Below, piece after piece: positions 14,451-29,278 of a stretch of 41,427 nucleotides of DNA. Every line of letters starts with the position of its first letter. Position 1 is the stretch's first letter. The DNA is from Candidatus Nomurabacteria bacterium RIFCSPLOWO2_01_FULL_46_18. GTDB lineage: Bacteria; Patescibacteriota; Minisyncoccia; Phycocordibacterales; UBA9973. Position numbers and translations under genes: made by a program. The notes beneath the pieces are model-generated. The model was not told where the DNA came from. It ran no database searches and saw only the letters and a program-made list of their open reading frames with translations. Location of the stretch: the NCBI GenBank assembly GCA_001786015.1, contig MFVH01000001.1:1-41427 (forward strand), read 5' to 3'.

Positions 14451-14479
14451 TTGATAAACTGTTGATAATCTAATATACT
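14451..14479 (+). promoter_or_regulatory. Candidate promoter of the rpmH operon (TTGATA-17-TATACT); ATG lies 6 nt after the -10
   Basis: TTGATA at 14451-14456, a 17-nt spacer, TATACT at 14474-14479, and the rpmH ATG at 14486. Confidence 0.45.
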
Positions 14480-14621: not shown

Positions 14622-14936
14622 ATGCTTCCTAAAAAGAATAGAATCGACAGAAAAACAGTGGCAAAGATTTTTAAAATCGGAAGATTTGTCGGTTCTCAGA
14701 ATTTAACCCTGAAGTTTATAAAGGAGAGCGGCGGACAGTCAAGAATTTCTTTCGTTGTTCCCAAAAATGTTGCCAGGGCTTCAAGCAAACGAAATTATCT
14801 ACGTCGACGGGGTTACATAATAATAGAGAAATATCTAAACCGTTTTCCTCTCGGATTTTACGGAGTTTTTATTTTTAAAACAATAAACATCGATATAGAA
14901 AATGAAATCAAAACAATTCTTACTAAGTTGCATTAA
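14622..14936 (+). CDS. rnpA: RNase P protein component
   Basis: 104 aa and basic. It starts 1 nt after the rpmH stop, in the conserved rpmH-rnpA-yidD-yidC order. Confidence 0.8.
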   Translation: MLPKKNRIDRKTVAKIFKIGRFVGSQNLTLKFIKESGGQSRISFVVPKNVARASSKRNYLRRRGYIIIEKYLNRFPLGFYGVFIFKTINIDIENEIKTILTKLH

Positions 14937-15117
14937 CTTTTATCAAAAAAGATTGAGCCCCATCAAAAAACCAAGCTGTGTTTTTTTTCCAACTTGTTCG
15001 AATTATGCGAAAGAAGCGATTTTAAAATACGGAGCCAAAAAGGGCACGAAACTTGCCCTACTTCGAATCCTTCGTTGCCACCCTTGGCAGAAAAATCATT
15101 TTGATCCGCTTAAATAA
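14902..15117 (+). CDS. yidD: Membrane protein insertion efficiency factor YidD
   Basis: 71 aa with FYQKRLSP and CVFFPTCSNYAKEAI motifs. It overlaps the rnpA 3' end. Confidence 0.85.
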   Translation: MKSKQFLLSCINFYQKRLSPIKKPSCVFFPTCSNYAKEAILKYGAKKGTKLALLRILRCHPWQKNHFDPLK

Positions 15118-15134: not shown

Positions 15135-15839
15135 ATGTTGGGAGATATTTGGAACTTTCTTTTATATCAGCCGCTCCTCAATATTTTGGCGTTCCTCGTT
15201 TCAATCGTTCCCGGCGGCGATGTGGGGCTCGCCATTATAATTCTCACGCTTTTGGTAAAAATTGTTCTCTATCCCCTTTCCCAGCGCTCGATCGAAAGCC
15301 AGGCCAAGATGAATCTCTTGGCTCCGGAGCTTAAAAAAATCAAAGAAAACGGCAAAAGCAAAGAAGAACAGGCGCGACTCACCTTCGAACTCTACAAAAC
15401 AAACAAGGCTAATCCGTTTTCCGGATGCCTTTTGGTCTTGATTCAAATACCCATAATTTTTGCTCTTTACTGGGTTTTTTACAAGGGAATAAGTTTCGAC
15501 GGCGGACTTCTTTATTCTTTTGTCCAAGCTCCGGAGAAAGTTAACATGTTCTTCCTTGGAGCTTTGGACATTGGCCAGAAAAGCTTAATCCTCGCGGTTC
15601 TGGCCGGCATCTCTCAATATCTGCAGGCGCACTTTATGCCGAAGCCCCCCTCCACGGGAGAAGCGGGATCGTTCTCGCACAGCTTTTCGAAGAGCATGCA
15701 TTTCCAGATGAAATATTTTTTCCCGTTCCTGGTCGCTTTCATCGCTTATACGATTTCCGGGGCAGTTGCATTATATTGGATTACCAGTAATATCTTCTCT
15801 GTGGGGCAGCAAATTTATGCAAAAAGACGACACAATTAA
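15135..15839 (+). CDS. yidC: Membrane protein insertase YidC (short form)
   Basis: 234 aa. LTLLVKIVLYPLS, MNLLAPELKKIKE, NPFSGCLLVLIQIPIIFALY, and a C-terminal basic tail. Confidence 0.85.
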   Translation: MLGDIWNFLLYQPLLNILAFLVSIVPGGDVGLAIIILTLLVKIVLYPLSQRSIESQAKMNLLAPELKKIKENGKSKEEQARLTFELYKTNKANPFSGCLLVLIQIPIIFALYWVFYKGISFDGGLLYSFVQAPEKVNMFFLGALDIGQKSLILAVLAGISQYLQAHFMPKPPSTGEAGSFSHSFSKSMHFQMKYFFPFLVAFIAYTISGAVALYWITSNIFSVGQQIYAKRRHN

Positions 15840-16290
15840 TTTAATCAAAGAATTAATCGAAAAAACCACCGTATCGGCTGGCGAGATTCAAGTGACCGAA
15901 GAAACCGGAGAGAGGGGGAAAAAGACAGTTTGGTTTTCCGTTGAAGTCTCCGACCCCTATCATTTCTCGGCCAGAGGCGGGGAAGGTCTTTTCGCCTTGA
16001 ATCATCTCGTGAGAAGAATAATTGAAACCCGGTCTCCGGACTTGGTCGAGGAAATTTTGGTTGACATCAACGGCTTTCAGAAAAAAAGAGTTGAAAACGT
16101 TCGCGCCGTTGCCCACATGATGGCCGAGCGAGCCCGCTACTTCAAATCAAACATTGAAGTCGATCCGATGTCCGCCTTCGAGCGGAGAATCGTGCACGAA
16201 TTCCTCTCCGATGCCGCCGATTTGAGAACCGAATCGGAGGGGACTGGTCCCGGCCGACGCGTGGTGATCAAATATATCGGCTCTTTATAA
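15817..16290 (+). CDS. jag: Jag/KhpB-type KH plus R3H RNA-binding protein
   Basis: I start it at the internal ATG at 15817 (MQKDDTINLIKE), which overlaps the yidC end by 23 nt. It carries the R3H motif region ERRIVHEFLS. Confidence 0.75.
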   Translation: MQKDDTINLIKELIEKTTVSAGEIQVTEETGERGKKTVWFSVEVSDPYHFSARGGEGLFALNHLVRRIIETRSPDLVEEILVDINGFQKKRVENVRAVAHMMAERARYFKSNIEVDPMSAFERRIVHEFLSDAADLRTESEGTGPGRRVVIKYIGSL

Positions 16291-17595
16291 TTTGATTTCC
16301 CAGAGGTAAGAGTCACTCTTGTTCACGAAGAACAAGTAACTCTCGTTTTCGTCAAGCGAAGGCTTTATGCCATCCACCACCACCCCGCCGGGCGCTCTTG
16401 TTGGCTCAAGAATTATCGCCCCGCTCCCGGTCTCCACATCTATTTTCCAAATGTCGTCATTGAAAGATACCTCTCCGCGGTACCAGCTGTCGGGATAGAA
16501 TGCCCCCGGCGCGGACTTCGGGACGGCGCAATAAATCGCGGTACTTCCCTTATTCCAAACACATTTCTCCGGCAGAGTTCGAGCGCCGAGCGCCAATGAG
16601 CTTCTTGTTTCGAGGTCGTAAATATTAAGCGATAGGCTACTGTCGCCATAGAGAATCAATTTCCCGCTCGGACTTCCAATTGCGGTAAGTCCGTTTATCC
16701 CGCCTAGAATTTTCGCTAAAGATTTGGTATCGGGATTAAGCGCGTAGAGATAGCCCGGGATGTTTCCGGAGGGCTTGGTGGTGAGAACGATCATTTTTGC
16801 GGAGGGCCACGAAGTGAGCCATTCGCTAAAGGGCGAGTCGAAGACCTGTACCTTTTTATCGCCCAAGACTCCAGATGTTGTGCCGATTACGCTTTCCCCT
16901 TGATTGTAGAGATAAAATATCTTCGAGCCGTCCGATGAAACGCTCATGTCTGTAATGTTGTCCGGTAGAAATGTCCCACCCACTTCATTGTTTTCACTTG
17001 TATCTCCCCCCAGTAATTCTTTAGGCAGAGCGCCGGCGAAAGTTTCGATCGTTCGTTCATCCACCTTCAGACGGCGCATAATCACCGCTTCCCCCTTGTT
17101 GCCGAAATACGCTTCATAGACTTTTGGGACGAGAGTACCGGTGAACTTCCGCTCGTCAATAATATCGACAAAAGTCTGGTAAATATTTCCAGTCGCCCGC
17201 GCCACATAACGTAAGGTCGGTGCGAATTCGGTTTCGGGAGGGGCCACCGCCTTCGGCGGGGTCCCGCCTTCGGCGGTGATTAGGGGTGGGGGTACTTCCA
17301 CATACCTCTCTTTTTGATACACCGTGTATCCCGCAACCGGCATGTTGGAAACTCTTCTTAGTCGAAGTTCTTGGTCCTCTCCCGCAGTCGGAATGTCAGT
17401 TGTATCTCCCGGTTCTGCCGGTGCTCCGGGCGTGGGCGTGCTCGGCTTGAAAGGATTGAATTGCGACCAGAAATTTGTGCTGGGTGTTTCGCCGGGGGCC
17501 AGCGTTCCGGGCTTTTCGCGAGTGAACCAAAAGAAAGCCAGTATCGCCAGAGCGATGAGAAGGATGATTAATAAGTTTTTGTTTCGTTTAGACAT
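16285..17595 (-). CDS. Membrane-anchored extracytoplasmic protein with a Pro/Thr-rich linker and TolB/PD40-like beta-propeller-type repeats (last gene of the T4SS-like cluster)
   Basis: 436 aa. N-terminal TM segment LLIILLIALAILAFFWF, a linker PSTPTPGAPAEPGDTTDIP, and repeated motifs (DGSKIFYL, SGKLILYGD, ESYLFFVNKSDSYLWEI). The product name is tentative. Confidence 0.5.
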   Translation of the reverse strand: MSKRNKNLLIILLIALAILAFFWFTREKPGTLAPGETPSTNFWSQFNPFKPSTPTPGAPAEPGDTTDIPTAGEDQELRLRRVSNMPVAGYTVYQKERYVEVPPPLITAEGGTPPKAVAPPETEFAPTLRYVARATGNIYQTFVDIIDERKFTGTLVPKVYEAYFGNKGEAVIMRRLKVDERTIETFAGALPKELLGGDTSENNEVGGTFLPDNITDMSVSSDGSKIFYLYNQGESVIGTTSGVLGDKKVQVFDSPFSEWLTSWPSAKMIVLTTKPSGNIPGYLYALNPDTKSLAKILGGINGLTAIGSPSGKLILYGDSSLSLNIYDLETRSSLALGARTLPEKCVWNKGSTAIYCAVPKSAPGAFYPDSWYRGEVSFNDDIWKIDVETGSGAIILEPTRAPGGVVVDGIKPSLDENESYLFFVNKSDSYLWEIKL

Positions 17596-17598
17596 GAA

Positions 17599-18648
17599 TT
17601 ATGATTTTAAACCGTCACACGTACCGGTTGTATACTGTGCTTCGTTAATTAATTTACTAAAATGCATAGCGTCTTTTTTGGTTATCCAATATCCCCCCCA
17701 GCCAAAACCTCTTTTTGTGAACAACTGCACAAAGGCTGCTGGCATGTCGGTCACACATGGAGAAGGGGCATCTCTGTACGGATTAGAACTTGGATTAATG
17801 TCCACAGATAACCCAAAAGCGTGCGCCGAAGCAATGGGTGGATTAGAATTAGTTGCGCTTCTTGGATTATACCCTCCGACCGACGTTACTGCATAGTTTT
17901 TTACTTTCGGGTTTGTGCTATTTGCCCACTCCCCATTTATTCCTTGAATTTCTCCCTGTATTGCCTTGTTTACTCGCACAGAGTAACCAAAAAGCATTAC
18001 AGTTACTAACTGGCTTTCGTCGCAGGATGTAAGTGTTTGCCCTTTCACCACTGTTGTTTGTCCACAAATTACTCCCTCTCCCACAGTAATTTCTGGACCC
18101 TCGACAAATTGTATTGTTGTTGTATCTATTTTTAACTCCGTTTTCAACAAATCCGGATTGATGGTAAATAAAATCAGCCACGCTCCAAGCGCGACCAGGA
18201 GGCCGAGCACGGCGTTGGTGATCCTACGTTTGCCGTCTTCCTTGCCGGAGACAAGCTCGGTGGTCATGTATTGAATCCCGCCCATTACAATCATCACCAC
18301 CGCCAGCACCGCCGCCAGGCCGATTGCCAGTTTGATTATTATATTTAAATATTGCCCGAGAGCGTTATCGCCACTTACGTCAATGTTTGATAGCTCTCCT
18401 CCTTCTGGATTAGGCAGAGGGGCGAGAAGATTGTATCCTGAGGAATTCGTAGAATTTGGGAATGGAGTGGATGACCATACTCCGCTACAGTCGTCTTTAG
18501 TTGTGGGGAGAAATGTTGGAGTGGATGGAGAGCCTGGAGTTATAAAAACAGTACAGGTTCCTAATTCTTGCGCGTGCAATTGAAATGCGTAACTAAAAAG
18601 TCCCACCAGCACAATAATTATTAAAATGGAGTGAATAAGTTTTCGCAT
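17599..18648 (-). CDS. Fusion protein: T4SS-pilin-like (VirB2/TrbC-type) TM hairpin plus C-terminal M15-family peptidoglycan peptidase
   Basis: 349 aa with a signal peptide. The hairpin is LNIIIKLAIGLAAVLAVVMIVMGGIQYMT...KRRITNAVLGLLVALGAWLILFTINP. The C-terminus has LAS/M15_4-like motifs SAHAFGLSVDINP and GFGWGGYWITKKDAMHF. Confidence 0.65.
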   Translation of the reverse strand: MRKLIHSILIIIVLVGLFSYAFQLHAQELGTCTVFITPGSPSTPTFLPTTKDDCSGVWSSTPFPNSTNSSGYNLLAPLPNPEGGELSNIDVSGDNALGQYLNIIIKLAIGLAAVLAVVMIVMGGIQYMTTELVSGKEDGKRRITNAVLGLLVALGAWLILFTINPDLLKTELKIDTTTIQFVEGPEITVGEGVICGQTTVVKGQTLTSCDESQLVTVMLFGYSVRVNKAIQGEIQGINGEWANSTNPKVKNYAVTSVGGYNPRSATNSNPPIASAHAFGLSVDINPSSNPYRDAPSPCVTDMPAAFVQLFTKRGFGWGGYWITKKDAMHFSKLINEAQYTTGTCDGLKS

Positions 18649-18649
18649 T

Positions 18650-19621
18650 TTAAAATTCTATATTTATTTCCTTACTGGCTGATTCGAAAATTTTATCGGT
18701 GTTTTCGATCTCCAGTCTCAATTTCGACACCCCGCTTACTCCTCCCTCCACTCTTAGTGGTATCACGTTTTTCTCTACAATTTTCGGCGGAAGCATCAGA
18801 TTATTAATAAACCACCGGAAGGCCAGCTCCGGCCGGCGGATATCCGCGGGGGAAATAAAATAAGGAACCGCGACGATTATCTCTTCGCCTGTAATTCTGT
18901 ATGGATTCGGGAGCGCCTTCTCCCAGAGCGTGCCAAGCTCGCCATCTTTTTTGTAAAAAGCGATTTGAGGCTGGTACGACCCGATATTTATATTCCCGCC
19001 CGAGGAATATTTTCCGTCAATCGTCGAGGCGACCACGCTGATATTACTTGCCTCGTCGAGATAGTCGTTCGAATAAACCAAGAAACTTCTTCCGTAACCG
19101 GAATCCCCCGGCGAATTCTCATAATCTTTCTTCCACTCGTAGGTAAGAGTTTTCGGGCTGGCCAGGCTGCCCCCGATTTTTATCTCCGGCAAGGCCACTA
19201 CTTTTATCTCACTGCCTTCGGTCGGGAGCGCTTTCCCTTTGTAAAATGGCGGCAGGTACGAGTCGGTCGCTTCGAAGAGGAGAACCAATTCGGCCGGCCG
19301 AATGATTATGTTTTTGTCTATTTCTCCATCCGGCAGGAATATTTTGGCGATAATCCTTGTCTCTGTTCCTGAGGCTCCGGCCGTCACCTGGAAAGAACTC
19401 TTCCCGATTCCGGAGAGAACGCTTTTACCGTTTACTATCCACGAGATATTCACCGTACCCAAGTTCGCGGCATAACTCGAAAGCGAAATTGTCACATTCT
19501 CATATGAAGCGGGGTTTTGAGGATTTATACTGACCGAGATCGCCGAAGGCGAAACAGCCAAAGCCCTTCCCGCCATGATTGCCCCAAGTATTGAAATCAG
19601 AAGTAAAAATTTAATTCTCAT
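18650..19621 (-). CDS. Secreted hypothetical protein, probably Ig-like/beta-rich (T4SS-like cluster)
   Basis: 323 aa with signal peptide MRIKFLLLISILGAIMAGRALA. It starts 1 nt before the next gene. I recognise no catalytic motif. Confidence 0.5.
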   Translation of the reverse strand: MRIKFLLLISILGAIMAGRALAVSPSAISVSINPQNPASYENVTISLSSYAANLGTVNISWIVNGKSVLSGIGKSSFQVTAGASGTETRIIAKIFLPDGEIDKNIIIRPAELVLLFEATDSYLPPFYKGKALPTEGSEIKVVALPEIKIGGSLASPKTLTYEWKKDYENSPGDSGYGRSFLVYSNDYLDEASNISVVASTIDGKYSSGGNINIGSYQPQIAFYKKDGELGTLWEKALPNPYRITGEEIIVAVPYFISPADIRRPELAFRWFINNLMLPPKIVEKNVIPLRVEGGVSGVSKLRLEIENTDKIFESASKEINIEF

Positions 19622-19646
19622 ATTTTAATTGTATCATTTACTTAAA

Positions 19647-21476
19647 CTACCCCCCGGCCGCTTCCAATTCCATTTTCGCCTGCCGAATGGATAATATCTG
19701 CGACGGGTCGGAGGTGATAATCTGATCTTCGGTGTAAGAAGCGATCACTTTAATCGCCACATGTTTTAATCCGGCGAAGAAAATTCCTTCCCCAACATCG
19801 GATTCGAGCAGTAAATTTTTCTCCTCGTCGGTCAGATTGAAAGTTTTCTGCAAAATATCGATGGTGGCGGCGGATTGTTTCAGAAGCAGTTGTAAAGATG
19901 AGTTGGTGACGATCGGGACGCCGTAAGGGGAATTCAGAAAGTCGGCCGCGTCCTGGGTGATAGTGGAGAGCCCCAGATAATATTTTCTGCCGCGCTTGGC
20001 CATCGAGTAAAGAAAAGAAGCGGTGTCTTCGGACTTCATCATCCACCACGCTTCATCGACGACCAGCAGGCGTTTTTTCAGATTTTTGCGGATGGCGGTC
20101 CAGATATAATGCATCACAATATACATCGCCACCGGCTTCAATTCGTCTTCCATGTCGCGAACGGAGAAAACAATGAATCTTTTATTGATGTCCACATTCG
20201 AAGGCTGGTTCAAGAAAGTTGCCCAAGTTCCTTTGGTGTACTTGACCAAGCGCTGGATGACCGAGTCGCTCCCCTCCATTCCGGCGAGTACCATCTCAAA
20301 GTCCGAAAGAAGCGGCGGCTCGATGTTTGCAAAATCTGAATTGGGGGTGATGTCTTTGATCGCGTAAGTCTCGGTGATTGCCCGATCCACCATTGAATCT
20401 TCTTCCGGCGTGAGCCCCCCGAGCATCAGGCGGAAAAGCCCGACCAAGTTGATGGTATTGGAACGAAGAACATCCTCCGAAGTTTCATCTTCGCGCGGAA
20501 TCGGTAGGTCAAAGGGATTGATGTGGTGTTCGGAGGAAAGGGAAATGTTGAAATATCGCCCGCCGACCGCCTCGGCCAGGTATTCGTATTCCTTCTCTGG
20601 GTCGATGACGATAACGTCGGTGTCGAACATCAGCGAACGCAGAATTTCCAGTTTAGTTGCGTAGCTTTTGCCGCTTCCGGCCTTGGCGAAGGTCACCGAA
20701 TTGTAATTCTCCAGCGAAAAACGGTCGAAGATGACCAAGCTCGAATTGTGCCGGTTCACTCCGTAGAGTATTCCCCGGTCGGAAGTGAGATCGAAGGAAA
20801 TGAAAGGAAAAACGCTGGAGAGCGGCTCGGAATTCAGTTTTTGGTGGATTCCCAGAAGATCGGTGCCGATCGGGATCACGCTTTTGAAACCCTCCTCCTG
20901 CTGGAAGAGCGCCGGTTTTAAGTAAATGAGCTTCGATTCGAGAATTGATTTGATCTCGTTTTCAACCTTGAAAAGTTCCAGCTCGTTGTCGGCATAAATA
21001 GTAATGTAAATTCCGACATCGAACATTTTTTCCTGCGCCTGGATCAAGTTGTCGCGCAAGCCCTCCAGGTCCTGGTGGGCGGTATCGAGCATCGGGTCCC
21101 GGACCATGCCCTTTCCTTCTCGCACCGAGATCTGGCTTTGCACTTCCGCGACTTTTTTCTGGAATTGGCGCAGGATAAGCGAAGTGTCGATTGGGTGAAT
21201 GAAAATTGAAACATCGAAGATCTTATCCAGATTGATGACCGGAGAGAACCAATTATCCGAAAGATACCGAGGATAGGAGATAACGAAGAAAGTCCGCGCG
21301 ACCTTGGTGCCAAGGTTTATCGCCTTCGATTCGATCTTCAAGGCCGATGGAGCGATTACATCCTGGAGCTCCAGGTTGGCCGATTCGTAGATCTGCTCCG
21401 GCAAGACCGAAAGAACATGGGTATCACCCTTGCCAAGTATTTTATTTCTCCCCAACAATTTATCTAAAATTCCCAT
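19647..21476 (-). CDS. virB4: VirB4/TrbE/PrgJ-like type IV secretion ATPase
   Basis: 609 aa. Walker A FAKAGSGKSYATK, Walker B RLLVVDEAWWMM, and a C-terminal motif LSTITQDAADF. Confidence 0.85.
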   Translation of the reverse strand: MGILDKLLGRNKILGKGDTHVLSVLPEQIYESANLELQDVIAPSALKIESKAINLGTKVARTFFVISYPRYLSDNWFSPVINLDKIFDVSIFIHPIDTSLILRQFQKKVAEVQSQISVREGKGMVRDPMLDTAHQDLEGLRDNLIQAQEKMFDVGIYITIYADNELELFKVENEIKSILESKLIYLKPALFQQEEGFKSVIPIGTDLLGIHQKLNSEPLSSVFPFISFDLTSDRGILYGVNRHNSSLVIFDRFSLENYNSVTFAKAGSGKSYATKLEILRSLMFDTDVIVIDPEKEYEYLAEAVGGRYFNISLSSEHHINPFDLPIPREDETSEDVLRSNTINLVGLFRLMLGGLTPEEDSMVDRAITETYAIKDITPNSDFANIEPPLLSDFEMVLAGMEGSDSVIQRLVKYTKGTWATFLNQPSNVDINKRFIVFSVRDMEDELKPVAMYIVMHYIWTAIRKNLKKRLLVVDEAWWMMKSEDTASFLYSMAKRGRKYYLGLSTITQDAADFLNSPYGVPIVTNSSLQLLLKQSAATIDILQKTFNLTDEEKNLLLESDVGEGIFFAGLKHVAIKVIASYTEDQIITSDPSQILSIRQAKMELEAAGG

Positions 21477-21491
21477 TTTACTTTATAACTT

Positions 21492-22130
21492 TTAACTTAT
21501 TTGTATTTTTCCTTCCATTTCTCCCGGATTGAAAACTTTATAAAATACCTCGACCACCTCTTCGGTGCCAAGCGGCGCCGATTTGATGCCGCAACGGGCG
21601 AGCCCCTCCTGCACTACCGAAACCCTCTGCTCCAACTGGGATCTCTTCTCTTCAAAATCAAGCTGGAGAGCCCTCTCCATTTCTCGAGTATTTTTTCGCC
21701 CGAAGATTTTTCCAAGAATTCCGGTATCCGTCCTTATCGTAATCTGGGTAAAAGGAACGACGACGAAGAAGCTCTTGGTCATGATGGCGACCTGTTCGGT
21801 GAAGTTCCGGATAAATTCGATGTACTCTCGGGTTTGCAGTTTTAGCAGGGGCTCGCTCTGCAGATTTATCCTCTCCTCCAGAACCAGGAGGTACGGACGG
21901 ATATCCAGCCGGCGGGATTGCACGGATATCTGCGTCGGGAAATCAAGAGTGTTCAAGAAACTCTGAAATTGATAGATTGTTGCCCGCTGTTCGTCGGAAG
22001 ACTTCAAAAATAAGTTGGTCGAAGTCGCCAACACGACCTGCCGAAGCGAGCCGTCCTTTAAAACGATTACTCCGTCGCGGACTTCTTTGATCGGGACGAA
22101 TTCTTGAGTTGATTTTGCGCTGATTGCCAT
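21492..22130 (-). CDS. Hypothetical protein resembling a stand-alone VirB4 N-terminal domain, with no ATPase motifs
   Basis: I start it at the ATG at 22128-22130 (MAISAKSTQEFVPIKEVRDGVIVLKDGSLRQVV...), directly after the PrgI-like stop. The track's longer form would overlap the upstream gene by 29 nt. The domain assignment rests on my pattern recognition only. Confidence 0.45.
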   Translation of the reverse strand: MAISAKSTQEFVPIKEVRDGVIVLKDGSLRQVVLATSTNLFLKSSDEQRATIYQFQSFLNTLDFPTQISVQSRRLDIRPYLLVLEERINLQSEPLLKLQTREYIEFIRNFTEQVAIMTKSFFVVVPFTQITIRTDTGILGKIFGRKNTREMERALQLDFEEKRSQLEQRVSVVQEGLARCGIKSAPLGTEEVVEVFYKVFNPGEMEGKIQIS

Positions 22131-22131
22131 A

Positions 22132-22548
22132 TTATTGTTTTTTAAGGTCCAAAACGTCAAGGCTCCACGCGAGATCTCGCAATTTGCTTCCGGAGAGTCG
22201 GGCTTCGCGCGCTATCGGGGCAATCTCGGCTTCCGCCTTTTTCTTTTCCAGCATTTCTCGGGTCATACCTCTCTCCTTCTTCCAAATATAAAGCTTGTCC
22301 TGAAAAAAATATTTGAATCCGGCTTCGACCATGAAGATGAAGGGCTTGCTATTCGGCCGGTAGAAAGCGAGGAGGAGGGCGAAACCACCGACCACCAAGA
22401 TTGGTATGGCCCCCAAAGCAAAGCCGAGGGTGCGGTAGAGCACGAAGCAAATACCGGCTCCGCCGGCCAGGTAGACGAACTGCTTGAAGGTAAAAGGCCC
22501 GAAAATTTTGTCTTCAATCTCCAGAAATTGTGGAACTTTGAATTGCAT
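22132..22548 (-). CDS. PrgI/VirB3-like small membrane protein
   Basis: 138 aa. MQFKVPQFLEIEDKIFGPFTFKQFVYLAGGAGICFVLY followed by a second TM segment. This is the typical PrgI-family N-terminus and topology, positioned upstream of the VirB4-like gene. Confidence 0.7.
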   Translation of the reverse strand: MQFKVPQFLEIEDKIFGPFTFKQFVYLAGGAGICFVLYRTLGFALGAIPILVVGGFALLLAFYRPNSKPFIFMVEAGFKYFFQDKLYIWKKERGMTREMLEKKKAEAEIAPIAREARLSGSKLRDLAWSLDVLDLKKQ

Positions 22549-22552
22549 TGAA

Positions 22553-23149
22553 TTACTCCGGTATTTCCCGATAAGGATCGACCGTTGGTTTTTGGGGAAC
22601 TGGTTTTTCTTCGTCTTTGGTTACATTCGGAACTGAATATTCTGTTTTTGTCGAAGGAATTTGAAAAGAGCCGGAGAGCTTCTGCGCGAGCATTGAAGGA
22701 GCGGGCTTTGTCTCGCCGAAGCCTTTGACGGAGGCGGGAGGGTTTAATTCTGGGGTTGCCAGGTTGGGCTGATTGGATGATGCTGGGATTTCCGGCCCCG
22801 GTTCGAGTGATGGTTCCGCCCCGAGCGGGGTGTTCATTAGTTTCAGCAAGTCCCTTATCTTTAAGAAGATTTTTTCGTTTATATCATTAACGATTAGATG
22901 CCCCTTTTCTTTTTCAAAGCCAAGTTCTTTGGTTAGCTCCATTTCGAAATTATTGGGGTTAATCAGTCCCATCATCACCATCGTCGTTTCTCGCTCCAGA
23001 ATTCCCATCTGCTCGACGTTCAAGTTATATTTTTTGCTTATCTCTATCAGGTCTTCCTGATAATGCGAAGACAAAATTATCTCCTGGATACTCTCCGGCA
23101 GAGCCTCGAATCTTTCTTTTATTAACTCTAATGTTGTATTTTCGTCCAT
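22553..23149 (-). CDS. Hypothetical soluble protein with a Pro-rich C-terminal half (T4SS-like cluster)
   Basis: 198 aa with no TM segment or signal peptide and an acidic helical N-terminal domain. I recognise no family. Confidence 0.45.
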   Translation of the reverse strand: MDENTTLELIKERFEALPESIQEIILSSHYQEDLIEISKKYNLNVEQMGILERETTMVMMGLINPNNFEMELTKELGFEKEKGHLIVNDINEKIFLKIRDLLKLMNTPLGAEPSLEPGPEIPASSNQPNLATPELNPPASVKGFGETKPAPSMLAQKLSGSFQIPSTKTEYSVPNVTKDEEKPVPQKPTVDPYREIPE

Positions 23150-23171
23150 ATTTTAATTATTTTCTAATAAT

Positions 23172-25580
23172 TCATTTATGTTCTTCACCTCCTCCTTTTT
23201 CTCCACTGCCGCCTTTGCCCAAGTCTCCCATTTTACGACTTATATCTGATAATTTTTCTTCACTAACTTTTTCTCCACCGGCTATTTTCCTTAAATAATC
23301 TTTTATTTCCTTGTCGGCCGGCGGAGGCTTTCTGACTGCGGCGGCTACCTCTAGCGTTGACCTGTCAAGCCGGTTAAAGCCGTCCTTAAGTGCCTGCAAA
23401 ATTCCTCCTCCAATTACCAGAGTCCCGGCTCCCACTGCCCCAACTGCTGTTCCGCCTGCAATAGCTCCAGCAGCCGCTACTCCAGCTCCCGCCGGGATCA
23501 TTTTCCCCATCCCACCCAAGAGACCACGCATTGCCTGCTTCAGCGTCCCTCCTTCAACCAAGCTTGCTGCATAGGCGCGCCTTCGGTCGTCGTTAATGTC
23601 TACTACACTTTTTAGACTTCCGCTCTCAACTTTTTTATTTAACCCGTATCCGGATAAATCTCCTCCCCTTTCGTACGTACCCTTGAAAGTTTCCATGAAT
23701 TTTTTCTTGTCATCTTCTGTGAATGTCTGAAAGCGATCTTTTCGTTTCTCTGCCTCTGCACCAAGAGCGCGTACTAGATCTTTTTGATACTGATCGATCC
23801 TTTCTTCTTGCCTGGCTTCTCCCGCCTTAGTTAATAAAATAGTTTTTACTTTTTCTTGTTCTTTGTCTATCCTGCGTTCTATTTGCCCTGCTCTTCCTTT
23901 TTCGAAAGATTTGGTTCCGAGTGGCCCTAACCCCTTGTCAGCAAGTTTAATACCTACCTTGCCTGCTGCCGCTTTTGCTAAGCCAACTTGTCGGACATCG
24001 TAACTTCTCTTGCCAAGGAAATTTCCTGCTCCCAGCGCCATCTTTGCCCTCACTTGTTGCCATTTAGAATATTTTCCTTCTTCATTTGCAGCCATTTCCC
24101 GTCGCTTATCACTGCTAGCAACTCCCGTTCCTATTCTTCCAAAGGTTTGCGTTCCCAAAAGCGCCGCTCCCCCAATTGCTCCTCCCAATGCCGCTCCCCC
24201 CAACATCTTCGCTCCGCCGATGATTTTTTCGGTAAGCTCGCCAGAAGCGGATCTCGCGTACTTGGCTCCTTTTAACAGGGCCATGACGATGAGTGCTGCC
24301 GGTATGAAGATCAGGAGCATCGCCGTAGTCGCTGGTTGACTGTTGGTGACAGCGTCGTCGAATATCTTTGCCGCAAGGATTTCGGAGACAACATAAAGAA
24401 TGAACATGAAAATAGCGGCCACAAATGAAACCGTAAACAGCTGTTTTATCCAACTGTCGAAGCCAATGGTATTAATGCCCTTGAATTTCGGGACGGCGAA
24501 GGTAACAAAGGCAAAAGGGGAAATGATCATGAGCATAATTAGGGTGATAAGCCTTCCGAGAAAACTCAATCCCACAACCAAGAACGCGTAAACAAGCGCG
24601 AAAGCCATGATCCCATATGCAATCATTATTGATATCAAGGCAAACGCGCTTATCCCTTCAATTTTTTCTTTTATTGAGTTTACGGTATCTTGGCTGCACA
24701 CGTAGGAAGCGCCGGTTTGTTTACAACTCTCATCCCTTATTCTTATTGCCTCCTCAAGATTCTCCTCCTTGATTTTCTCCATAATACTTCCGTCGAAGAA
24801 CGCATTGATATCGAATCTTGAAATTAACGCGGCCGCCAGCGGTCTTTCACTGCCTATATTTTGATCTTGAGGAACGTCTTTCGTGTCAATTCGATTGTAG
24901 AAAATAAGCGCGACAATATTAGACGCGTCAATCACAATTTTTGTGAAAAATAGACTAAAATTTACCACCAGCGCTATTAATATCACCGCGGCGATGATTT
25001 TTTTACCTCCTCCATGTCCCAAGTCGAGCATTATCTGAAATGCGGCGTAGAGAAGAATGAGGATGAAGAAAATATTGGCGAAATCGCGGACCACCCGCCA
25101 AATTTTCTCAATAAATTCTTTGCCATACATCGCGCTCGAAAGCGTCAACTGCGCCATCAAGTCAAAAACCTTAGCAGCCATTTTCATGAGAAATGACGGA
25201 ACAGAAACGAAGATAATATATGAAAGCTGTACGGCACATCCCGGTACAATAGAACTTCCTGGTAAAATTCCGCAATTGTAATCACCCAGTTGGTCTTTGA
25301 GGGTTGAACCCGAAGTTGCGGGGGCCGTTTGGATTGGTTGATCCGTAGGCAAAGGATCTCGCCAAACATTTGTCAGGTTACCTCCCCGAGTTGGATCTTT
25401 GCAATTCGCTTCACCCAGGGCCCATAACGGATAGCCGTCGGCTGCATAACAATTTTCAGCTTCAGCCTTCTTTACCGGCACCGCGAACATGCTCAAGCTG
25501 ATTGCCAGGATGATGAGCCCGCCGATAACTCGTCGGGGCCAGTTGAAAGTCAAAAGTTTAAAGTTAAAAGATGGACTCAT
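23172..25580 (-). CDS. VirB6/TrbL-like polytopic membrane protein with a long Gly/Ala-rich and charged C-terminal extension
   Basis: 802 aa. Signal/TM segment, a Cys-containing ectodomain, at least six hydrophobic helices, then a coiled/charged tail. Its ATG overlaps the stop of the upstream gene (ATGA at 25577-25580). Confidence 0.6.
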   Translation of the reverse strand: MSPSFNFKLLTFNWPRRVIGGLIILAISLSMFAVPVKKAEAENCYAADGYPLWALGEANCKDPTRGGNLTNVWRDPLPTDQPIQTAPATSGSTLKDQLGDYNCGILPGSSIVPGCAVQLSYIIFVSVPSFLMKMAAKVFDLMAQLTLSSAMYGKEFIEKIWRVVRDFANIFFILILLYAAFQIMLDLGHGGGKKIIAAVILIALVVNFSLFFTKIVIDASNIVALIFYNRIDTKDVPQDQNIGSERPLAAALISRFDINAFFDGSIMEKIKEENLEEAIRIRDESCKQTGASYVCSQDTVNSIKEKIEGISAFALISIMIAYGIMAFALVYAFLVVGLSFLGRLITLIMLMIISPFAFVTFAVPKFKGINTIGFDSWIKQLFTVSFVAAIFMFILYVVSEILAAKIFDDAVTNSQPATTAMLLIFIPAALIVMALLKGAKYARSASGELTEKIIGGAKMLGGAALGGAIGGAALLGTQTFGRIGTGVASSDKRREMAANEEGKYSKWQQVRAKMALGAGNFLGKRSYDVRQVGLAKAAAGKVGIKLADKGLGPLGTKSFEKGRAGQIERRIDKEQEKVKTILLTKAGEARQEERIDQYQKDLVRALGAEAEKRKDRFQTFTEDDKKKFMETFKGTYERGGDLSGYGLNKKVESGSLKSVVDINDDRRRAYAASLVEGGTLKQAMRGLLGGMGKMIPAGAGVAAAGAIAGGTAVGAVGAGTLVIGGGILQALKDGFNRLDRSTLEVAAAVRKPPPADKEIKDYLRKIAGGEKVSEEKLSDISRKMGDLGKGGSGEKGGGEEHK
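25546..25570. repeat. Left arm of a 25-nt imperfect inverted repeat flanking the four-helix-bundle gene
   Basis: AAAGTCAAAAGTTTAAAGTTAAAAG. Its reverse complement matches 25943-25967 at 22 of 25 positions. It lies within codons 4-12 of the VirB6-like gene. Confidence 0.6.
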
Positions 25581-25927
25581 GTTTTTATCTTTTTAATCAA
25601 GCCCCCTAGCATCCTTGAAATTTCTATTGATGAAGAGCTAATTTTTTCGAATTCATTTTTCGAAATGTAATTTAGGTCCAAGGCAAGATAAAGCATTGAT
25701 CTAACTTCTCCGCATGAACCCTTCGAAATGAACAAGAATTTTCTGAATTCCTTATTACCCATTCTTTCAAATCCCTCGGCTACGTTGTTCATCACTGATA
25801 CGGCCGCTCTCTGTATTTGGTCTCTAAACCCGAAGTCCCTGCTTTGGCCAAAAATTTTATAGCACAACAAGCTTAGTTCTCGCGCCCTTTGCCATATTTG
25901 TATATCCTCGAACTTCTCTATCTTCAT
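25577..25927 (-). CDS. Four-helix-bundle protein of the 23S rRNA intervening-sequence protein / Avd family (TIGR02436-like)
   Basis: 116 aa. FEDIQIWQRARELSLLCYKI, RDQIQRAAVSVMNNVAEGFERMGNKEFRKFLFISKGSCGEVRSMLYLALDLNYI. These are hallmark motifs of this family. Confidence 0.8.
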   Translation of the reverse strand: MKIEKFEDIQIWQRARELSLLCYKIFGQSRDFGFRDQIQRAAVSVMNNVAEGFERMGNKEFRKFLFISKGSCGEVRSMLYLALDLNYISKNEFEKISSSSIEISRMLGGLIKKIKT

Positions 25928-25942
25928 ACTTTTAACTTTTCC

Positions 25943-25967
25943 CTTTTAACTTTTAACCTTTAACTTT
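25943..25967. repeat. Right arm of the inverted repeat flanking the four-helix-bundle gene, within a TTTTAAC-rich tract at 25928-25970
   Basis: CTTTTAACTTTTAACCTTTAACTTT. It is intergenic, between the 775-aa gene stop and the four-helix-bundle gene start. Confidence 0.6.
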
Positions 25968-25968
25968 T

Positions 25969-28296
25969 TTATAAGCATGCTCCCGCCCCACAACCATCAC
26001 CCGGCGGCGGCTCTTCTCCCGTCAAATCATCTCCCGTGTCATTCGGCGGCGGCGGCGGTTCAATGATTTTTATTTCTCCCGGAATGTTTCCTTTGTAATC
26101 TATTGTGTAAGAACGGAAGATAGTATTGCAGCTTAACTTAATGTCAAAGTTGAGATCTCTTGTACCGCTTAACCTAACCTTTACTTTTGTATTCAGGAGC
26201 GGTATCTCCGGATAAGTGGGACTTTTGTTGATAAACATCTCATGTGTATACCCCCCGGCAATTGGTAGAATGCAAAACTGTTCTGCTTCCGAGCCGGTGG
26301 TGCCGATGCGGAAGCTTGACCTCCCGTCCGGATCACTCCACTCGCCCGCCGGAATATTCCAGCCATTGCTTACCCTCTCGGTCGCGCAGCGATTCACCAT
26401 TTTATTCAAGCTTGCCAATTTGTCTTTGAGCGCGTCGAGTTGCGCCTTGCTTTCCTCAAGAGTGTCCGGATTGGAAATCTGGTAGAGGATTAAGTTGTAT
26501 TGTTTTTTAATTTTAATCAGATCTTTTTCCGCTGGTGTGTCGGACGTTGGTTGAGTGGTAAAAGCGCTTAAGGCGCCAGCAATAGCCTCGAGTCGAGCGA
26601 GTGCTTGAGCCTTGAACCTTTTACTGTCGGTAATTTCTATTATCTGCTGATCAAACATTTCTGTCTCGTCAATTGCATCCAAGAACAATATCGAGCTTGG
26701 GAGCGTTTGCATAATCTTTGTTCTTACCCAGTCCTTAAAGAAGCTCGCCGCGAACTGGAGTTCTTTTAATATCAGAGTTGCCGCGGCGGATTTTTTTGAA
26801 TTTTCGTCCCCTACTTTCTCTTGGATTTTTACGCTGGCTCTACTCATTTCATCATTTAATCTCCCTTCCCATCCGTAGTTGGGGCCCGGTAGGCATAGAT
26901 CAAGTTGTCTTACCCTCGGCCAAATTGCGGAGAGCATTTGAATCGCGCCGTAGTTTGTCGAATTTGGGTTATCGAGCAGAGCAAGCTCAGCTTTGGTGTC
27001 GGTAATTCCCCTTTGCACATCATCCTTGAATTCTTGAAGTATAATTTCCTGATCCGGACCAGAGAAAATATCTCTATTTGGATTGTCGTCGGGACTCCCC
27101 AGGGTGTTGCCCAGATAGTCCCAGTTATCCTCATTTTCCGGCAGAGCGTTTCTTTTACTTGCAAGGGCATTGAGGCCACCACCTGGATTCACAAGTTTAT
27201 TTAAGAGTGCATCGAAAATCGCCGAAAGGCTTCCGCCGAGTGCGGCACCCAGTTCGGTTTGGGAAAAGTTTGAGCCCAGAGCGCGAGTAACTTGGCTCGC
27301 TGCTACATAACCTGGAGTTGTGTTTGCCCACCCACCCGTGCAGGTATTTTGATTTGTCCAGGCAACTTGGGCAATTCCTTTTCGTGAATTATATGCCGAT
27401 TGATCCAGAAAGTATTTCGGGTCAACAGTAGTTTCCTGAACATACAAACCGCTCGCGGGATCTTTTCGTGAAACTGTTGTTTTGTAGTTGTCAGCGATCG
27501 GAGGGTCTTCATCAAATTCGAAAGTAGGCGGATTGTATGGATTTTGGACTAAGCTAGGATTTGAACGGCAGACTTGCGGGGAGAGAAAACCCTGGCCTTG
27601 CTGTAATAGGTCCTGCACTTTGCCTATCTCATTATTGGGAGTTGGGCCGGCATCAATTCTTCTTGCTAGCTCCTCGTTCGCGAGCATCTGGAATCCGATG
27701 GCGTTGTTTTGCGGATACTGGGTATGCAAAAATAATCCATTCCATCCGCCGATGTTGAAATTGTTGCGGTAGTTTGAAAGATACGCTTCATCTCGTATCA
27801 CGTTGCTCAAGCTGTAAGCGGCATTGACATCAAGCTGGCGCTTATATGCGTCAATAAAATTTAGAGAGACTTGCCGGCCGTAAGGGAACCGAAGCGGGTC
27901 GCGGCCGAAAATGTCAACCAAATTTCTGATTTCAAATTTGGTAATGTCTCGGAAGAAGGAATCAGGATTTTCCAGGAAGAGCGGTTTACCGTGAAAACCG
28001 CTATTAATCCAGTTTACCGTTCCCTTAGTCAGTTCAGTCAAGGCTTTTCTTGCCACCGATTTTGCAATCTGGTTTAGCACAAACCTCAATTCGTTTTTAA
28101 CCGTAATCTTTTTTTCGTAGAGATCTACCGCTGCGGATATAGCCGTCTTAATTTCAGTAATAATATCAACGACTATATCGCCAAATCCCAAAAAGGCATG
28201 AGCTTTTTTGGGGGCAATGAATAAAGGTGAAGCTATTATGGCAATTAGAACCAATGTTGTAATAACTTTTTGAATTTTTTGGTTTTTAAAAAACAT
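25969..28296 (-). CDS. Large secreted or membrane-anchored hypothetical protein (T4SS-like cluster)
   Basis: 775 aa with N-terminal TM/signal VITTLVLIAIIASPLFIAPKKAHA. The C-terminus is Pro-rich and ends in PPPPPNDTGDDLTGEEPPPGDGCGAGACL. I recognise no family. Confidence 0.5.
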   Translation of the reverse strand: MFFKNQKIQKVITTLVLIAIIASPLFIAPKKAHAFLGFGDIVVDIITEIKTAISAAVDLYEKKITVKNELRFVLNQIAKSVARKALTELTKGTVNWINSGFHGKPLFLENPDSFFRDITKFEIRNLVDIFGRDPLRFPYGRQVSLNFIDAYKRQLDVNAAYSLSNVIRDEAYLSNYRNNFNIGGWNGLFLHTQYPQNNAIGFQMLANEELARRIDAGPTPNNEIGKVQDLLQQGQGFLSPQVCRSNPSLVQNPYNPPTFEFDEDPPIADNYKTTVSRKDPASGLYVQETTVDPKYFLDQSAYNSRKGIAQVAWTNQNTCTGGWANTTPGYVAASQVTRALGSNFSQTELGAALGGSLSAIFDALLNKLVNPGGGLNALASKRNALPENEDNWDYLGNTLGSPDDNPNRDIFSGPDQEIILQEFKDDVQRGITDTKAELALLDNPNSTNYGAIQMLSAIWPRVRQLDLCLPGPNYGWEGRLNDEMSRASVKIQEKVGDENSKKSAAATLILKELQFAASFFKDWVRTKIMQTLPSSILFLDAIDETEMFDQQIIEITDSKRFKAQALARLEAIAGALSAFTTQPTSDTPAEKDLIKIKKQYNLILYQISNPDTLEESKAQLDALKDKLASLNKMVNRCATERVSNGWNIPAGEWSDPDGRSSFRIGTTGSEAEQFCILPIAGGYTHEMFINKSPTYPEIPLLNTKVKVRLSGTRDLNFDIKLSCNTIFRSYTIDYKGNIPGEIKIIEPPPPPNDTGDDLTGEEPPPGDGCGAGACL

Positions 28297-28307
28297 TTCT
28301 GTTTAAA

Positions 28308-29219
28308 TTATTGAAACTTGTTCTCAATTTCCTTCAGTTCATTTATAATCGACACATCCAAAGCGTCCAGATTTTCAACATATTGATTTATCGCGCCAAT
28401 TGTCGTGATCGGGTCACTATCGAAAGCTCTTATATCGCTCAAGTTCTCCATTACTCTTTGTAGGGCGTTGGTGATATCCAAATGGAGTGTGGCGATACTC
28501 GACGGCACATTTATTTTTGTCATCCCCTCGACCATTTCTCCTAAATTTTTGATAACCGGATCAAGCTCTATCAAAATATTCGCATCCGGATCTTCTCCTT
28601 CGCTTATAAATTTTTGCAAAGTATTGGCAACCTCTTCATCGAATGGATATTTATTTTGAAAAATAATGTCTGTGTCGTCGCTGTATTTTTTATATGTCGC
28701 CAGGCTGTTGTCGTTCGTTACTTTCAGATCTGTCATTGTAAAAACTTTCCTCTGCACCGGGTTTTGGATCTGTAAAGTGAGAGAGTCGGTGATTTGTTGC
28801 ACCGTATTGTCGTCAATTTCGCCGGCTTGGTTTAGCGCCACGACAGTGGAGAAAAGTTCCCGGGCGAATTTGTCCGTCTGCGTCAAGTTTTCATCGTCGG
28901 TATAAGATATTTCCTCGCCGGATTCCGCATTTGCCATTCGCTCGGCTTTTAATTTCGCGATTTCTTCGCGGTCGGAGACGCCGTCGTCATTAGTGTCTCT
29001 TTTGGTCGGGTCGGTGCCCCACAAACCTTCCTCCCAATCTAAAATTCCATCCTTGTCCGTGTCTCGACTTAGAATATCGCTCAAAATTTCATTCCCGGAG
29101 ACGAGTCCGGCACTGGCCGTCTCCTCATTCGTCCACTGTGATTTCGTTTTTATGAAAAAAATGGAAACAAGAAAAACAACCGCAAGAGCGACTAGGATGA
29201 CTCTTTTGTTTTTTAACAA
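28308..29219 (-). CDS. Membrane-anchored protein with thrombospondin type 3-like Ca-binding repeats (first gene of the cluster, TTG start)
   Basis: 303 aa. TM segment VILVALAVVFLVSIFFI, then DTDKDGILDWEEGLWGTDPTKRDTNDDGVSDREE. Confidence 0.55.
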   Translation of the reverse strand: MLKNKRVILVALAVVFLVSIFFIKTKSQWTNEETASAGLVSGNEILSDILSRDTDKDGILDWEEGLWGTDPTKRDTNDDGVSDREEIAKLKAERMANAESGEEISYTDDENLTQTDKFARELFSTVVALNQAGEIDDNTVQQITDSLTLQIQNPVQRKVFTMTDLKVTNDNSLATYKKYSDDTDIIFQNKYPFDEEVANTLQKFISEGEDPDANILIELDPVIKNLGEMVEGMTKINVPSSIATLHLDITNALQRVMENLSDIRAFDSDPITTIGAINQYVENLDALDVSIINELKEIENKFQ

Positions 29220-29254
29220 AAATTCTTTAATTGTATGTTTATTATACCCTAGAA

Positions 29255-29278
29255 TAGGTTCTAGGTGCTAGGTTTTAG
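29255..29278. repeat. Heptamer tandem array TAGGTTC-TAGGTGC-TAGGTTT-TAG, spanning the rsmA stop codon
   Basis: Read directly from the sequence. It lies 8 nt upstream (on the minus strand) of a TATAAT (plus-strand ATTATA at 29241-29246) that precedes the first T4SS-cluster gene. Confidence 0.6.

Follow-up and report, generated by a model that had tools for sequence, protein, structure and literature searches.

A chromosomal type IV secretion locus of the Patescibacteria class beside dnaA in a Nomurabacteria genome, with a VirB2-like hairpin fused to a cell-wall peptidase

The 41-kb contig MFVH01000001.1 of the Candidatus Nomurabacteria genome RIFCSPLOWO2_01_FULL_46_18 (41,427 nucleotides; hereafter, the window) carries, at 16285-29219, a block of eleven open reading frames (ORFs), g1 to g11, with features of a type IV secretion system (T4SS). 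We are nearly certain that this locus is a chromosomal, vertically inherited Patescibacteria T4SS in its Paceibacteria/Nomurabacteria form, derived from MPF-FATA conjugation machinery minus the DNA-processing parts. The explanation as a whole, in which this identity is joined to an inferred role as a non-conjugative machine for host contact, appears to us quite probable. The platform consists of a split VirB4 (g5 and g4), a PrgI/VirB3 protein (g6), and an extended VirB6-like protein (g8), accompanied by a hairpin-peptidase (g2). Five further partners are conserved in position, namely the extracytoplasmic g11, g10, g3, and g1 and the cytoplasmic g7.

Results

A compact operon with five predicted T4SS genes

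All eleven ORFs lie co-directionally on the minus strand, with gaps of 1-41 nt or 4-nt overlaps between them (Table 1). Judged from sequence, five of them (g4, g5, g6, g8, and g2) have assignable T4SS roles. The product of g4 matches the NCBIfam model conju_CD1110 (370 bits, cutoff 325) and the Pfam model P-loop_TraG (E 5.9e-25), and a PDB search aligned it with the solved VirB4 structure 4AG5 (E 2.4e-39) and with R388 TrwK (E 1e-6). Both Walker motifs, GSGKS and VVDEAW, are present, and g4 is the predicted motor of the system. The detached N-terminal domain, g5, matches VirB4_plasma (positions 87-233, E 2e-9), TrsD (E 6.6e-5), and, in precomputed annotation, the TraC-like family PF26593. Directly upstream of it, g6 matches PrgI (PF12666; 33.1 bits, cutoff 27).

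In the largest platform protein, g8, some eight hydrophobic segments are combined with a hydrophilic C-terminal tail of ~365 residues. Its own direct match is weak (CD3337/EF1877, E 4e-4), and Pfam TrbL does not match it. Among 58 orthologues, however, there are 21 family matches (10 to MMCAP2_0566, 6 to Mbov_0396, 4 to CD3337/EF1877, and 1 to pLS20_p028), and one orthologue matches TrbL; a search of the PDB with the orthologue alignment returned low-complexity coiled-coil matches only. The VirB6-like call stands because the orthologues match polytopic proteins of monoderm conjugation systems. The gene lies upstream of the PrgI-VirB4 pair, which we take to be the same place as that of prgH in pCF10.

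An earlier, sequence-only reading of this DNA had described eleven tightly packed, co-directional minus-strand genes between jag and rsmA-pcrA, about 2 kb from dnaA. The ORF listing bears this out, with 1,895 nt between the start of dnaA and the end of the block. That reading had recognized four T4SS roles (VirB4, PrgI, VirB6-like, and pilin-peptidase). Each of them holds, but the split of VirB4 raises their number to five. Correspondingly, one of the seven products that it had left without a role, g5, is the VirB4 N-domain by its VirB4_plasma and TrsD matches, while no such profile role was found for the other six. The profile searches that it had proposed gave matches for VirB4, PrgI, T4SS_pilin, and Peptidase_M15_4, but not for TrbL with g8.

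The block is a conserved part of the origin region

Scanning one genome per GTDB species yielded 554 relatives, of which the best 80 were used as loci for comparison. All 80 come from Nomurabacteria, Paceibacterota, or Minisyncoccia metagenome-assembled genomes, and their VirB4 is 75-90% identical to that of the window. The exact VirB4 of the window also occurs on nine metagenome contigs with identical gene order. The common arrangement is pcrA-rsmA-g11-g10-g8-g7-g6-g5-g4-g3-g2-g1, followed by convergent jag-yidC and by dnaA-dnaN-PBP1A. The order from pcrA to dnaN is kept in 15/15 long loci tabulated, save two local swaps and a small number of genes that escaped detection, and in the remaining, mostly shorter loci it agrees as far as the contigs reach. 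The synteny comparison that had been suggested earlier thus places the block at the same site in the same order across the 80 loci, within the reach of their contigs. In these loci, g5 is a separate ORF in 79/80 and g6 was detected in 76/80.

Median amino-acid identity to the window protein across the 80 loci is highest for VirB4 (g4; 80%), followed by DnaA (66%), g5 (60%), YidC (58%), DnaN (57%), g6 (52%), RsmA (50%), g2 (44%), g1 (39%), g3 (35%), g7 (32%), g8 (29%), and g10 and g11 (about 28%). With 80% against 66%, VirB4 is under tighter constraint than DnaA. Because gene order is conserved and VirB4 is more conserved than DnaA, the block is best regarded as a vertically inherited core machine and not as an integrative and conjugative element (ICE).

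Pfam and NCBIfam scans of the sizeable ORFs of the window detected no domain of a relaxase, type IV coupling protein (T4CP), VirB11, or integrase, and no att-like direct repeats bracketing the block were found. The sequence-only reading had listed the same absences and had proposed a domesticated apparatus serving something other than conjugation; the scans agree with the former, and the synteny, the VirB4 constraint, and the lack of relaxase, T4CP, and integrase in the window support the latter. The absence of a coupling protein is established for the 41-kb contig. At 3169-4872 (plus strand), 11 kb from the block, the window encodes a 567-aa PilB/GspE-type ATPase whose N-domain is of the MshEN type (T2SSE, E 2.4e-109). 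It shares its Pfam family with VirB11, but we rejected it as a VirB11, as its size and N-domain are those of an assembly ATPase of type IV pili or type II secretion systems.

A VirB2-like hairpin carries different wall-cutting domains in close relatives

In g2, the hairpin is recognized by T4SS_pilin (PF18895; 29.2 bits, cutoff 26.6; residues 95-160) and the enzyme by Peptidase_M15_4 (55 bits; residues 273-331). Both zinc motifs, SAHAFGLSVD (residue 274) and DAMHF (residue 326), are intact, and there is a weak match to 2VO9, a phage endolysin with L-Ala-D-Glu peptidase activity. It is the sole hairpin gene of the window, and most loci likewise have a single one. Two hairpin-fusion genes were seen in three related genomes (L012:12871-14619 and 16024-17871; L059:13882-16146; L060:12768-15666), and four hairpin stretches in one protein of the representative search (P0290).

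The hairpin is kept across 66 g2 orthologues, with a PF18895 match in 56/66 and a TrbC match in 3. The C-terminal 160-290 residues of the same proteins, in contrast, fall into 25 BLAST-level clusters. Counting Pfam matches, where one member may match several families, these heads include NlpC/P60 (11 members), VanY (7), YkuD (4), Amidase_5 (4), M15_4 (2), SLT_2 (2), SLT (1), SLT_4 (1), and Extensin-like_C (1). In the 20 cluster representatives inspected, all recognizable enzyme domains are C-terminal to the hairpin. One 10-member head cluster ('unk-A') is labeled LAS-like by motif: it conserves H..D and HWH motifs of the kind typically seen in LAS metallopeptidases, and searches of Pfam and the PDB gave it no match. 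Genomes whose VirB4 is 84-90% identical to that of the window carry an SLT_2, YkuD, VanY, NlpC/P60, or LAS-like head. When two hairpins are 60-70% identical, their heads belong to one cluster in 14% of cases, which equals the background level; for more distant pairs the figure is 9-13%. On these comparisons, head class is uncoupled from hairpin relatedness, the heads being shuffled among close relatives.

When 1.84 billion cluster representatives were searched exhaustively, 15,969 hairpin relatives came up at E<=0.001. Among the 150 closest, 117 have a C-terminal extension of at least 120 aa, and 105 of these 117 fall into the same head classes. A homologue search with the hairpin alone returned 20 short proteins only and was useless for judging fusions. 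The 2025 survey of Quiñonero-Coronel et al. handled VirB1-like and VirB2-like matches separately and found VirB1 homologues associated with virB4 mainly in Paceibacteria (PMC12102498). In the literature searched, we found no description of a hairpin-head fusion or of head shuffling; the fusion with its shuffled heads therefore seems to be an addition to the published picture.

Five conserved partners without a known counterpart

Six of the eleven products of the block have Sec-type N-termini. Following rsmA, the conserved block opens with g11, which holds the same position in 36-37 related loci and encodes an N-terminal anchor, thrombospondin-type-3-like calcium-binding repeats (DTDKDG...DTNDDG), and an extracellular helical bundle. 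PF18884 occurs in two of its homologues. The AlphaFold2 (AF2) model of g11 is all-helical, with a predicted local distance difference test score (pLDDT) of 76.6. A Foldseek search with this model found no PDB match at E<=0.001, and a PDB search with the orthologue profile found nothing below E 0.4.

The conserved N-terminal region of g10 contains WINSGFxGxPLF, GGW, and PQNN motifs together with invariant cysteines. Its AF2 model has a pLDDT of 74, exceeding 90 in the C-terminal half; the N-terminal half is conserved yet poorly modeled. Residues ~420-750 are confidently predicted to form an elongated bundle of helices and a small beta domain, and g10 is a candidate wall-spanning or stalk component. 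It has 302 homologues, none of them a named protein, and those with source names come from Nomurabacteria, Paceibacterota, or Minisyncoccia. Foldseek found no fold match to the model at E<=0.001 in the PDB or the viral BFVD. A hit to the R388 stalk chain (rank 48, E 0.73) is not evidence, and the orthologue-profile PDB matches, all of the coiled-coil type with heptad repeats aligned to viral fusion proteins, were set aside as compositional. The fold searches that the sequence-only reading had advised were thus run for g10 and g11 and matched neither to a known fold.

The cytoplasmic g7, present in 53-58 loci, is built of a helical N-domain, a Pro/Glu-rich disordered linker, and a C-terminal D-P-Y motif in which D191 and Y193 are invariant and P192 nearly so. 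It has no Pfam, NCBIfam, or PDB match, including in a search with the orthologue alignment. Its topology and position make it a candidate cytoplasmic adaptor docking on the ATPase. The all-beta g3, found in 73 loci, gives weak immunoglobulin (Ig)-type matches (Hoc, decoration proteins), and Ig_3 and BiPBP_C match 5/71 and 3/71 of its orthologues, respectively; its sequence probably comprises tandem Ig-like domains. The orthologue profile of g1 (n=61) matches TolB of several species (E 0.012-0.27), with PD40 in 3/61 and PG_binding_1 in 6/61 orthologues, and the residues K344, C345, P368, W371, G374, D380, and W432 are invariant. 

Amid tRNA genes at 34886-35680 (minus strand), the window encodes a VKOR homologue (E 9e-24) and a DoxX-like protein, a pair whose sequences point to extracytoplasmic disulfide formation. 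Such an activity would fit the invariant cysteines of g10 and the conserved pair of g1 (C345 invariant, C356 nearly so).

An accessory cassette bracketed by inverted repeats

The small g9 belongs to the 23S_rRNA_IVP family (E 1.7e-34; TIGR02436, E 4.5e-33), and the label 'Avd-like' that the sequence-only reading had given it has to be replaced. Its scores against Avd models are weak (DivGenRetAVD, 20.8 bits, cutoff 80; bAvd, E 0.024), and the window contains no reverse transcriptase; on both grounds, we rejected a diversity-generating retroelement. We regard g9 as an accessory cassette and not as a core part of the machine. An IVP gene is found in about 10 of the 80 loci at four other operon positions, the position in the window being a fifth. 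The window and the 80 loci, which span ~20 kb each, together hold 12 IVP genes; every one of them is inside the core of the T4SS operon, and the housekeeping flanks have none. Besides the junction of g10 and g8, the positions are between g8 and g6; between g7 and g6 (L007, L008, L016, L032, L055, and probably L037, whose contig starts just upstream); between g6 and g5 (L064 and L027, with a second L064 copy at L064:7809-8180); and between g5 and g4 (L059 and L071). This distribution suggests repeated independent insertion into the operon or a functional link.

Inverted repeats bracket g9, and their left arm forms the first codons of g8. Both the minimum-free-energy and the centroid structures predicted for the RNA pair the arms. 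The same bracketing design occurs in 6/8 related loci examined, with arms of 25-33 nt lying ~360-400 nt apart and with arm sequences unrelated between genomes. As in a 23S rRNA intervening sequence, a stem encloses an ORF; unlike there, the cassette sits inside a protein-coding operon.

Flanking genes and origin region

On one side, the block is flanked by jag, yidC, yidD, rnpA, rpmH, dnaA, and dnaN, and on the other by rsmA and pcrA. The stops of g1, the last gene of the block, and of the convergent jag overlap. A spacer of 55 nt separates rsmA from g11, and rsmA and pcrA overlap by 4 nt; both are on the same strand as the block and possibly co-transcribed with it. The GC content of the block is not distinct from that of its flanks. 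DnaA-box-like sites are found at 14449-14468 (two) and 13016-13024 (one). GC and AT skew track the direction of transcription and do not give the position of the origin. If the origin lies between dnaA and rpmH, the 16-kb pcrA-rsmA-T4SS unit (16285-32126) is read towards it, head-on to the replication fork; the unit has the same orientation in all related loci. Promoter and terminator scans gave counts slightly above those of shuffled sequences and were not used, and an Rfam scan of the window returned five tRNAs only.

The g11-rsmA spacer contains a 7-nt-periodic repeat (ATAGGTTCTAGGTGCTAGGTT...) at 29254-29285. A second copy, 84% identical, lies within rsmA at 29755-29786, where it encodes KTYNLEPRTYKL. 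The repeat resembles the tandem-unit arms around the IVP cassettes of relatives, e.g., TAGGCTCTAGGC in L016. At the upstream edge of the unit, adjoining pcrA and divergent from it, 32471-33481 (plus strand) encodes a LysM-LysM-Peptidase_M23 wall hydrolase; M23 and LysM domains occur in VirB1-like proteins according to the 2025 survey (PMC12102498).

Table 1. Genes and repeat elements of the T4SS block, its flanks, and bracketed IVP cassettes of related loci (TM, transmembrane)
Feature	Coordinates	Strand	Description and basis
g1	16285-17595	minus	membrane-anchored, 436 aa; one TM segment; Pro-rich linker, then TolB-like arrangement (beta-propeller)
g2	17599-18648	minus	signal peptide, VirB2-like two-helix hairpin (~66-170), M15 peptidase (~258-331); Pfam
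g3	18650-19621	minus	secreted/anchored all-beta protein, 323 aa; signal-like N-terminus
g4	19647-21476	minus	VirB4 ATPase, 609 aa; profile and PDB matches
g5	21492-22130	minus	detached VirB4 N-terminal domain, TrsD/TraC-like, 212 aa (ATG at 22130); NCBIfam
g6	22132-22548	minus	PrgI/VirB3-like small membrane protein, 138 aa; Pfam PrgI PF12666
g7	22553-23149	minus	cytoplasmic, 198 aa; no TM segment
g8	23172-25580	minus	extended VirB6-like polytopic membrane protein, 802 aa; TM segments, orthologue matches
g9	25577-25927	minus	four-helix-bundle protein, 23S_rRNA_IVP family, 116 aa; Pfam
g10	25969-28296	minus	775 aa, N-terminal anchor; orthologue alignment and AF2
g11	28308-29219	minus	bitopic membrane protein, 303 aa; one TM-like segment, residues 7-25
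Inverted repeats around g9	25542-25570, 25929-25957		29-nt arms, 83% complementary, short tandem units
rsmA (ksgA)	29275-30063	minus	RrnaAD match; directly upstream of block
pcrA	30060-32126	minus	UvrD-helicase match; upstream of rsmA
dnaN	11868-12962	minus	origin-region marker
dnaA	13047-14390	minus	origin-region marker
rpmH	14486-14620	plus	origin-region marker
rnpA	14622-14936	plus	origin-region marker
yidD	14902-15117	plus	origin-region marker
yidC	15135-15839	plus	origin-region marker
jag	15817-16290	plus	origin-region marker
Bracketed IVP, relative	L016:8488-8903		
Bracketed IVP, relative	L055:8487-8896		
Bracketed IVP, relative	L064:8739-9164		
Bracketed IVP, relative	L059:9535-9993		
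Bracketed IVP, relative	L071:9542-9989		
Bracketed IVP, relative	L008:6317-6707		

Discussion

The system is already described as a class, and the window adds no new kind of system. Quiñonero-Coronel et al. found VirB4 in 2,417 of 3,035 Patescibacteria genomes, and nearly all patescibacterial VirB4s (2,425/2,474) form one clade nested in monoderm MPF-FATA. They reported separate TrsD-like proteins, PrgI/VirB3, VirB6, and VirB2-like pilins near virB4, which lies close to dnaA, dnaN, rnpA, rpmH, and ksgA, especially in Paceibacteria. Relaxases occurred in 103 genomes only, and VirD4 homologues in most genomes, mostly far from virB4. Their table lists assembly GCA_001786015.1 as a VirB4-positive Paceibacteria genome of 453,640 bp (PMC12102498). 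The locus studied here shares the MPF-FATA-type VirB4, the separate TrsD-like ORF, PrgI/VirB3, the VirB6-like protein, and the VirB2-like pilin domain of this class, as well as the lack of a relaxase or T4CP nearby (here, within the 41-kb contig) and the location by dnaA, dnaN, rnpA, rpmH, and ksgA. Saccharimonadia have 2-11 free-standing pilin genes in arrays and, downstream of virB4, separate peptidase and lysozyme genes, whereas here there is a single hairpin-enzyme fusion. The accessory set g1, g3, g7, g10, and g11 is not named in either PMC12102498 or PMC10633639.

MPF-FATA systems (Prg/Pcf of pCF10, Trs of pGO1, CTn2 CD1110 of C. difficile, and Mbov_0395-0397 of a Mycoplasma ICE) supply the best matches for VirB4, TrsD, and PrgI. 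The likeness extends to the g2 hairpin (Mbov_0395), to g8 (Mbov_0396, MMCAP2_0566, CD3337/EF1877, and pLS20_p028), and to the presence of a membrane-anchored cell-wall hydrolase in the gene set. In contrast to these systems, the block lacks a relaxase, T4CP, oriT-processing genes, an adhesin (PrgB), and a recognizable VirB8-like PrgL, and it lies off mobile elements, in a core locus at the origin. The VirB1-type hydrolases PrgK, TraG of pIP501, and TcpG are likewise membrane-anchored peptidoglycan hydrolases inside a T4SS operon. Their anchor, however, is a single transmembrane helix and not a VirB2-like hairpin, and the catalytic module here is swapped among close relatives, with at least six enzyme classes represented. 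Helicobacter pylori ComB and archaeal Ced (CedB) also combine a VirB4-family ATPase with VirB2/3/6-type partners and have no relaxase or coupling protein, and they are a precedent for inward transport. ComB, unlike the block, has a diderm VirB7-10 core, and S. epibionticum has a separate comEC-type competence, which is dispensable. Scores against CedB (31 bits, cutoff 700) and CedD (17.6 bits, cutoff 600) indicate no Ced-type membership by sequence.

Functional evidence comes from Saccharimonadia. Transposon sequencing by Wang et al. in 2023 found SEML1_0006-0019 essential in Ca. Southlakia epibionticum, and the authors noted no recognizable coupling protein or relaxase in this cluster (PMC10633639). 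In the same organism, epibiotic growth requires the T4SS genes, while comEC is dispensable (PMC10633639; PMC12857230). A 2025 review called this the first T4SS essential for its own carrier and speculated on a pilus conduit for uptake (PMC12857230), while a 2024 perspective described the role of the T4SS as completely unknown (PMC11665869). For a cultured Minisyncoccota strain, OT8, a 2026 preprint reports uptake of host RNA as well as tubes, possibly T4SS pili, that penetrate the host (bioRxiv 10.64898/2026.06.21.733656).

We propose that, where the cell touches its host, VirB4 would power the building of a conduit or short pilus across the envelope, and that the hairpin-anchored wall-cutting enzyme g2 would open the peptidoglycan. 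From their topology and position, g10, g11, g3, and g1 may form or stabilize the wall-spanning part. The machine would thereby serve the obligate host-dependent lifestyle. Since a relaxase and probably a dedicated coupling protein are missing, it is not expected to conjugate DNA. As to function, our tentative choice, held at somewhat below an even chance, is the uptake of host macromolecules, e.g., nucleic acids. This choice is favored by the lack of T4CP and relaxase, as in ComB, by the dispensability of comEC in S. epibionticum, and by the host-RNA uptake of OT8.

The export of proteins or effectors is a lesser but substantial possibility. Proteins would be passed into the host cell or onto its surface, either by way of a VirD4-like coupling protein encoded elsewhere or in two steps starting from the extracytoplasmic space, as in Bordetella Ptl, and the g2 heads themselves could be cargo. 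Protein export is one option of Wang et al. (PMC10633639), T4CP-less exporters exist in Ptl and Brucella VirB (PMC12857230), and VirD4 homologues occur in most Patescibacteria genomes, away from virB4 (PMC12102498). The Sec-type N-termini of 6/11 products and the look of effector diversification in the shuffled hydrolase modules point the same way. However, the window holds no T4CP, and no candidate effector genes with recognizable toxin domains were seen in or beside the block. Furthermore, the t4cp homologue of S. epibionticum is non-essential, unlike its T4SS genes (PMC12102498).

A role mainly as a pilus or in attachment is rather unlikely, and its strict form, in which VirB4 builds a VirB2-type filament or anchor that serves adhesion and own-wall remodeling and lets no substrate through, is more unlikely still. 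VirB4 is indeed the pilus-biogenesis ATPase of canonical systems (PMC12102498), a VirB2-like protein is present, and the accessory proteins are Ig-like and TolB/PG-binding-like. Any hydrolase class seems to be accepted at g2, as would be expected if only the own wall were cut. Yet for adhesion and motility Patescibacteria already employ type IV pili (PMC12857230; PMC11665869), the bulky enzyme borne by the sole pilin-like gene speaks against a long homopolymeric filament, and the extended VirB6 channel protein has been kept and is conserved.

An ordinary ICE or remnant, with its relaxase, coupling protein, and integrase beyond the window, is highly improbable: although the closest characterized families are monoderm ICE and plasmid conjugation proteins (CD1110, Mbov_0395-0397, TrsD, and PrgI), across the 80 species-level genomes the block keeps its core-gene neighbors within the reach of each locus, VirB4 is conserved above DnaA, the GC content is like that of the flanks, integrase, relaxase, and flanking direct repeats were all not found in the window, and relaxases occur in only 103/3,035 surveyed genomes (PMC12102498). 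Equally far-fetched is a decaying, non-functional remnant of an ancient conjugation system, which the missing VirB8, VirD4, and relaxase and the two-ORF VirB4 might suggest, as all ORFs are intact with Walker and M15 zinc motifs preserved, the split is the conserved state (79/80 loci) and matches the TrsD arrangement of pGO1, amino-acid conservation is very high, and the homologous Saccharibacteria system is essential (PMC10633639).

Several points nevertheless weigh against a non-conjugative host-contact machine as we propose it. Essentiality has been shown in Saccharimonadia only and not by experiment in any Paceibacteria. A VirD4-like gene may sit elsewhere in the 454-kb genome, which would reopen the export route. 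A VirB8-like component was not found, and the AF2/Foldseek searches brought up no VirB8 (NTF2-like) or VirB5-like fold. A hairpin carrying a 180-aa enzyme may not polymerize into a pilus. The assignment of g8 relies on its orthologues, its own VirB6 match being weak (E 4e-4). With g10 and g11 lacking a fold match and g7 any match, the structural roles given to them are guesses from position and topology. Finally, our judgments of direction and cargo are estimates outside what the present results address.

For the shuffled heads, one reading is a neutral replacement, in which opening of the own wall would accept any hydrolase. We also put forward, as a speculative and somewhat doubtful idea, that the hairpin may be a docking or extrusion handle for an interchangeable head, which VirB4 would present at the contact site to cut the host wall, so that head class would track host wall chemistry and set host range.

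A large part of the diversity of bacteria belongs to the Patescibacteria, which live attached to host cells, and the window is a clean, complete Paceibacteria example of their T4SS. Its useful features are an ATPase constrained above DnaA, five position-conserved partners without a known counterpart, and a swapped wall-cutting head on a pilin-like handle; the head shuffling and the conserved uncharacterized partners are what merit follow-up. A correlation of head class with host wall type, if there is one, would provide a genome-readable handle on the host range of uncultured lineages and would point to wall breaching at the contact site as the step at which this machine acts.

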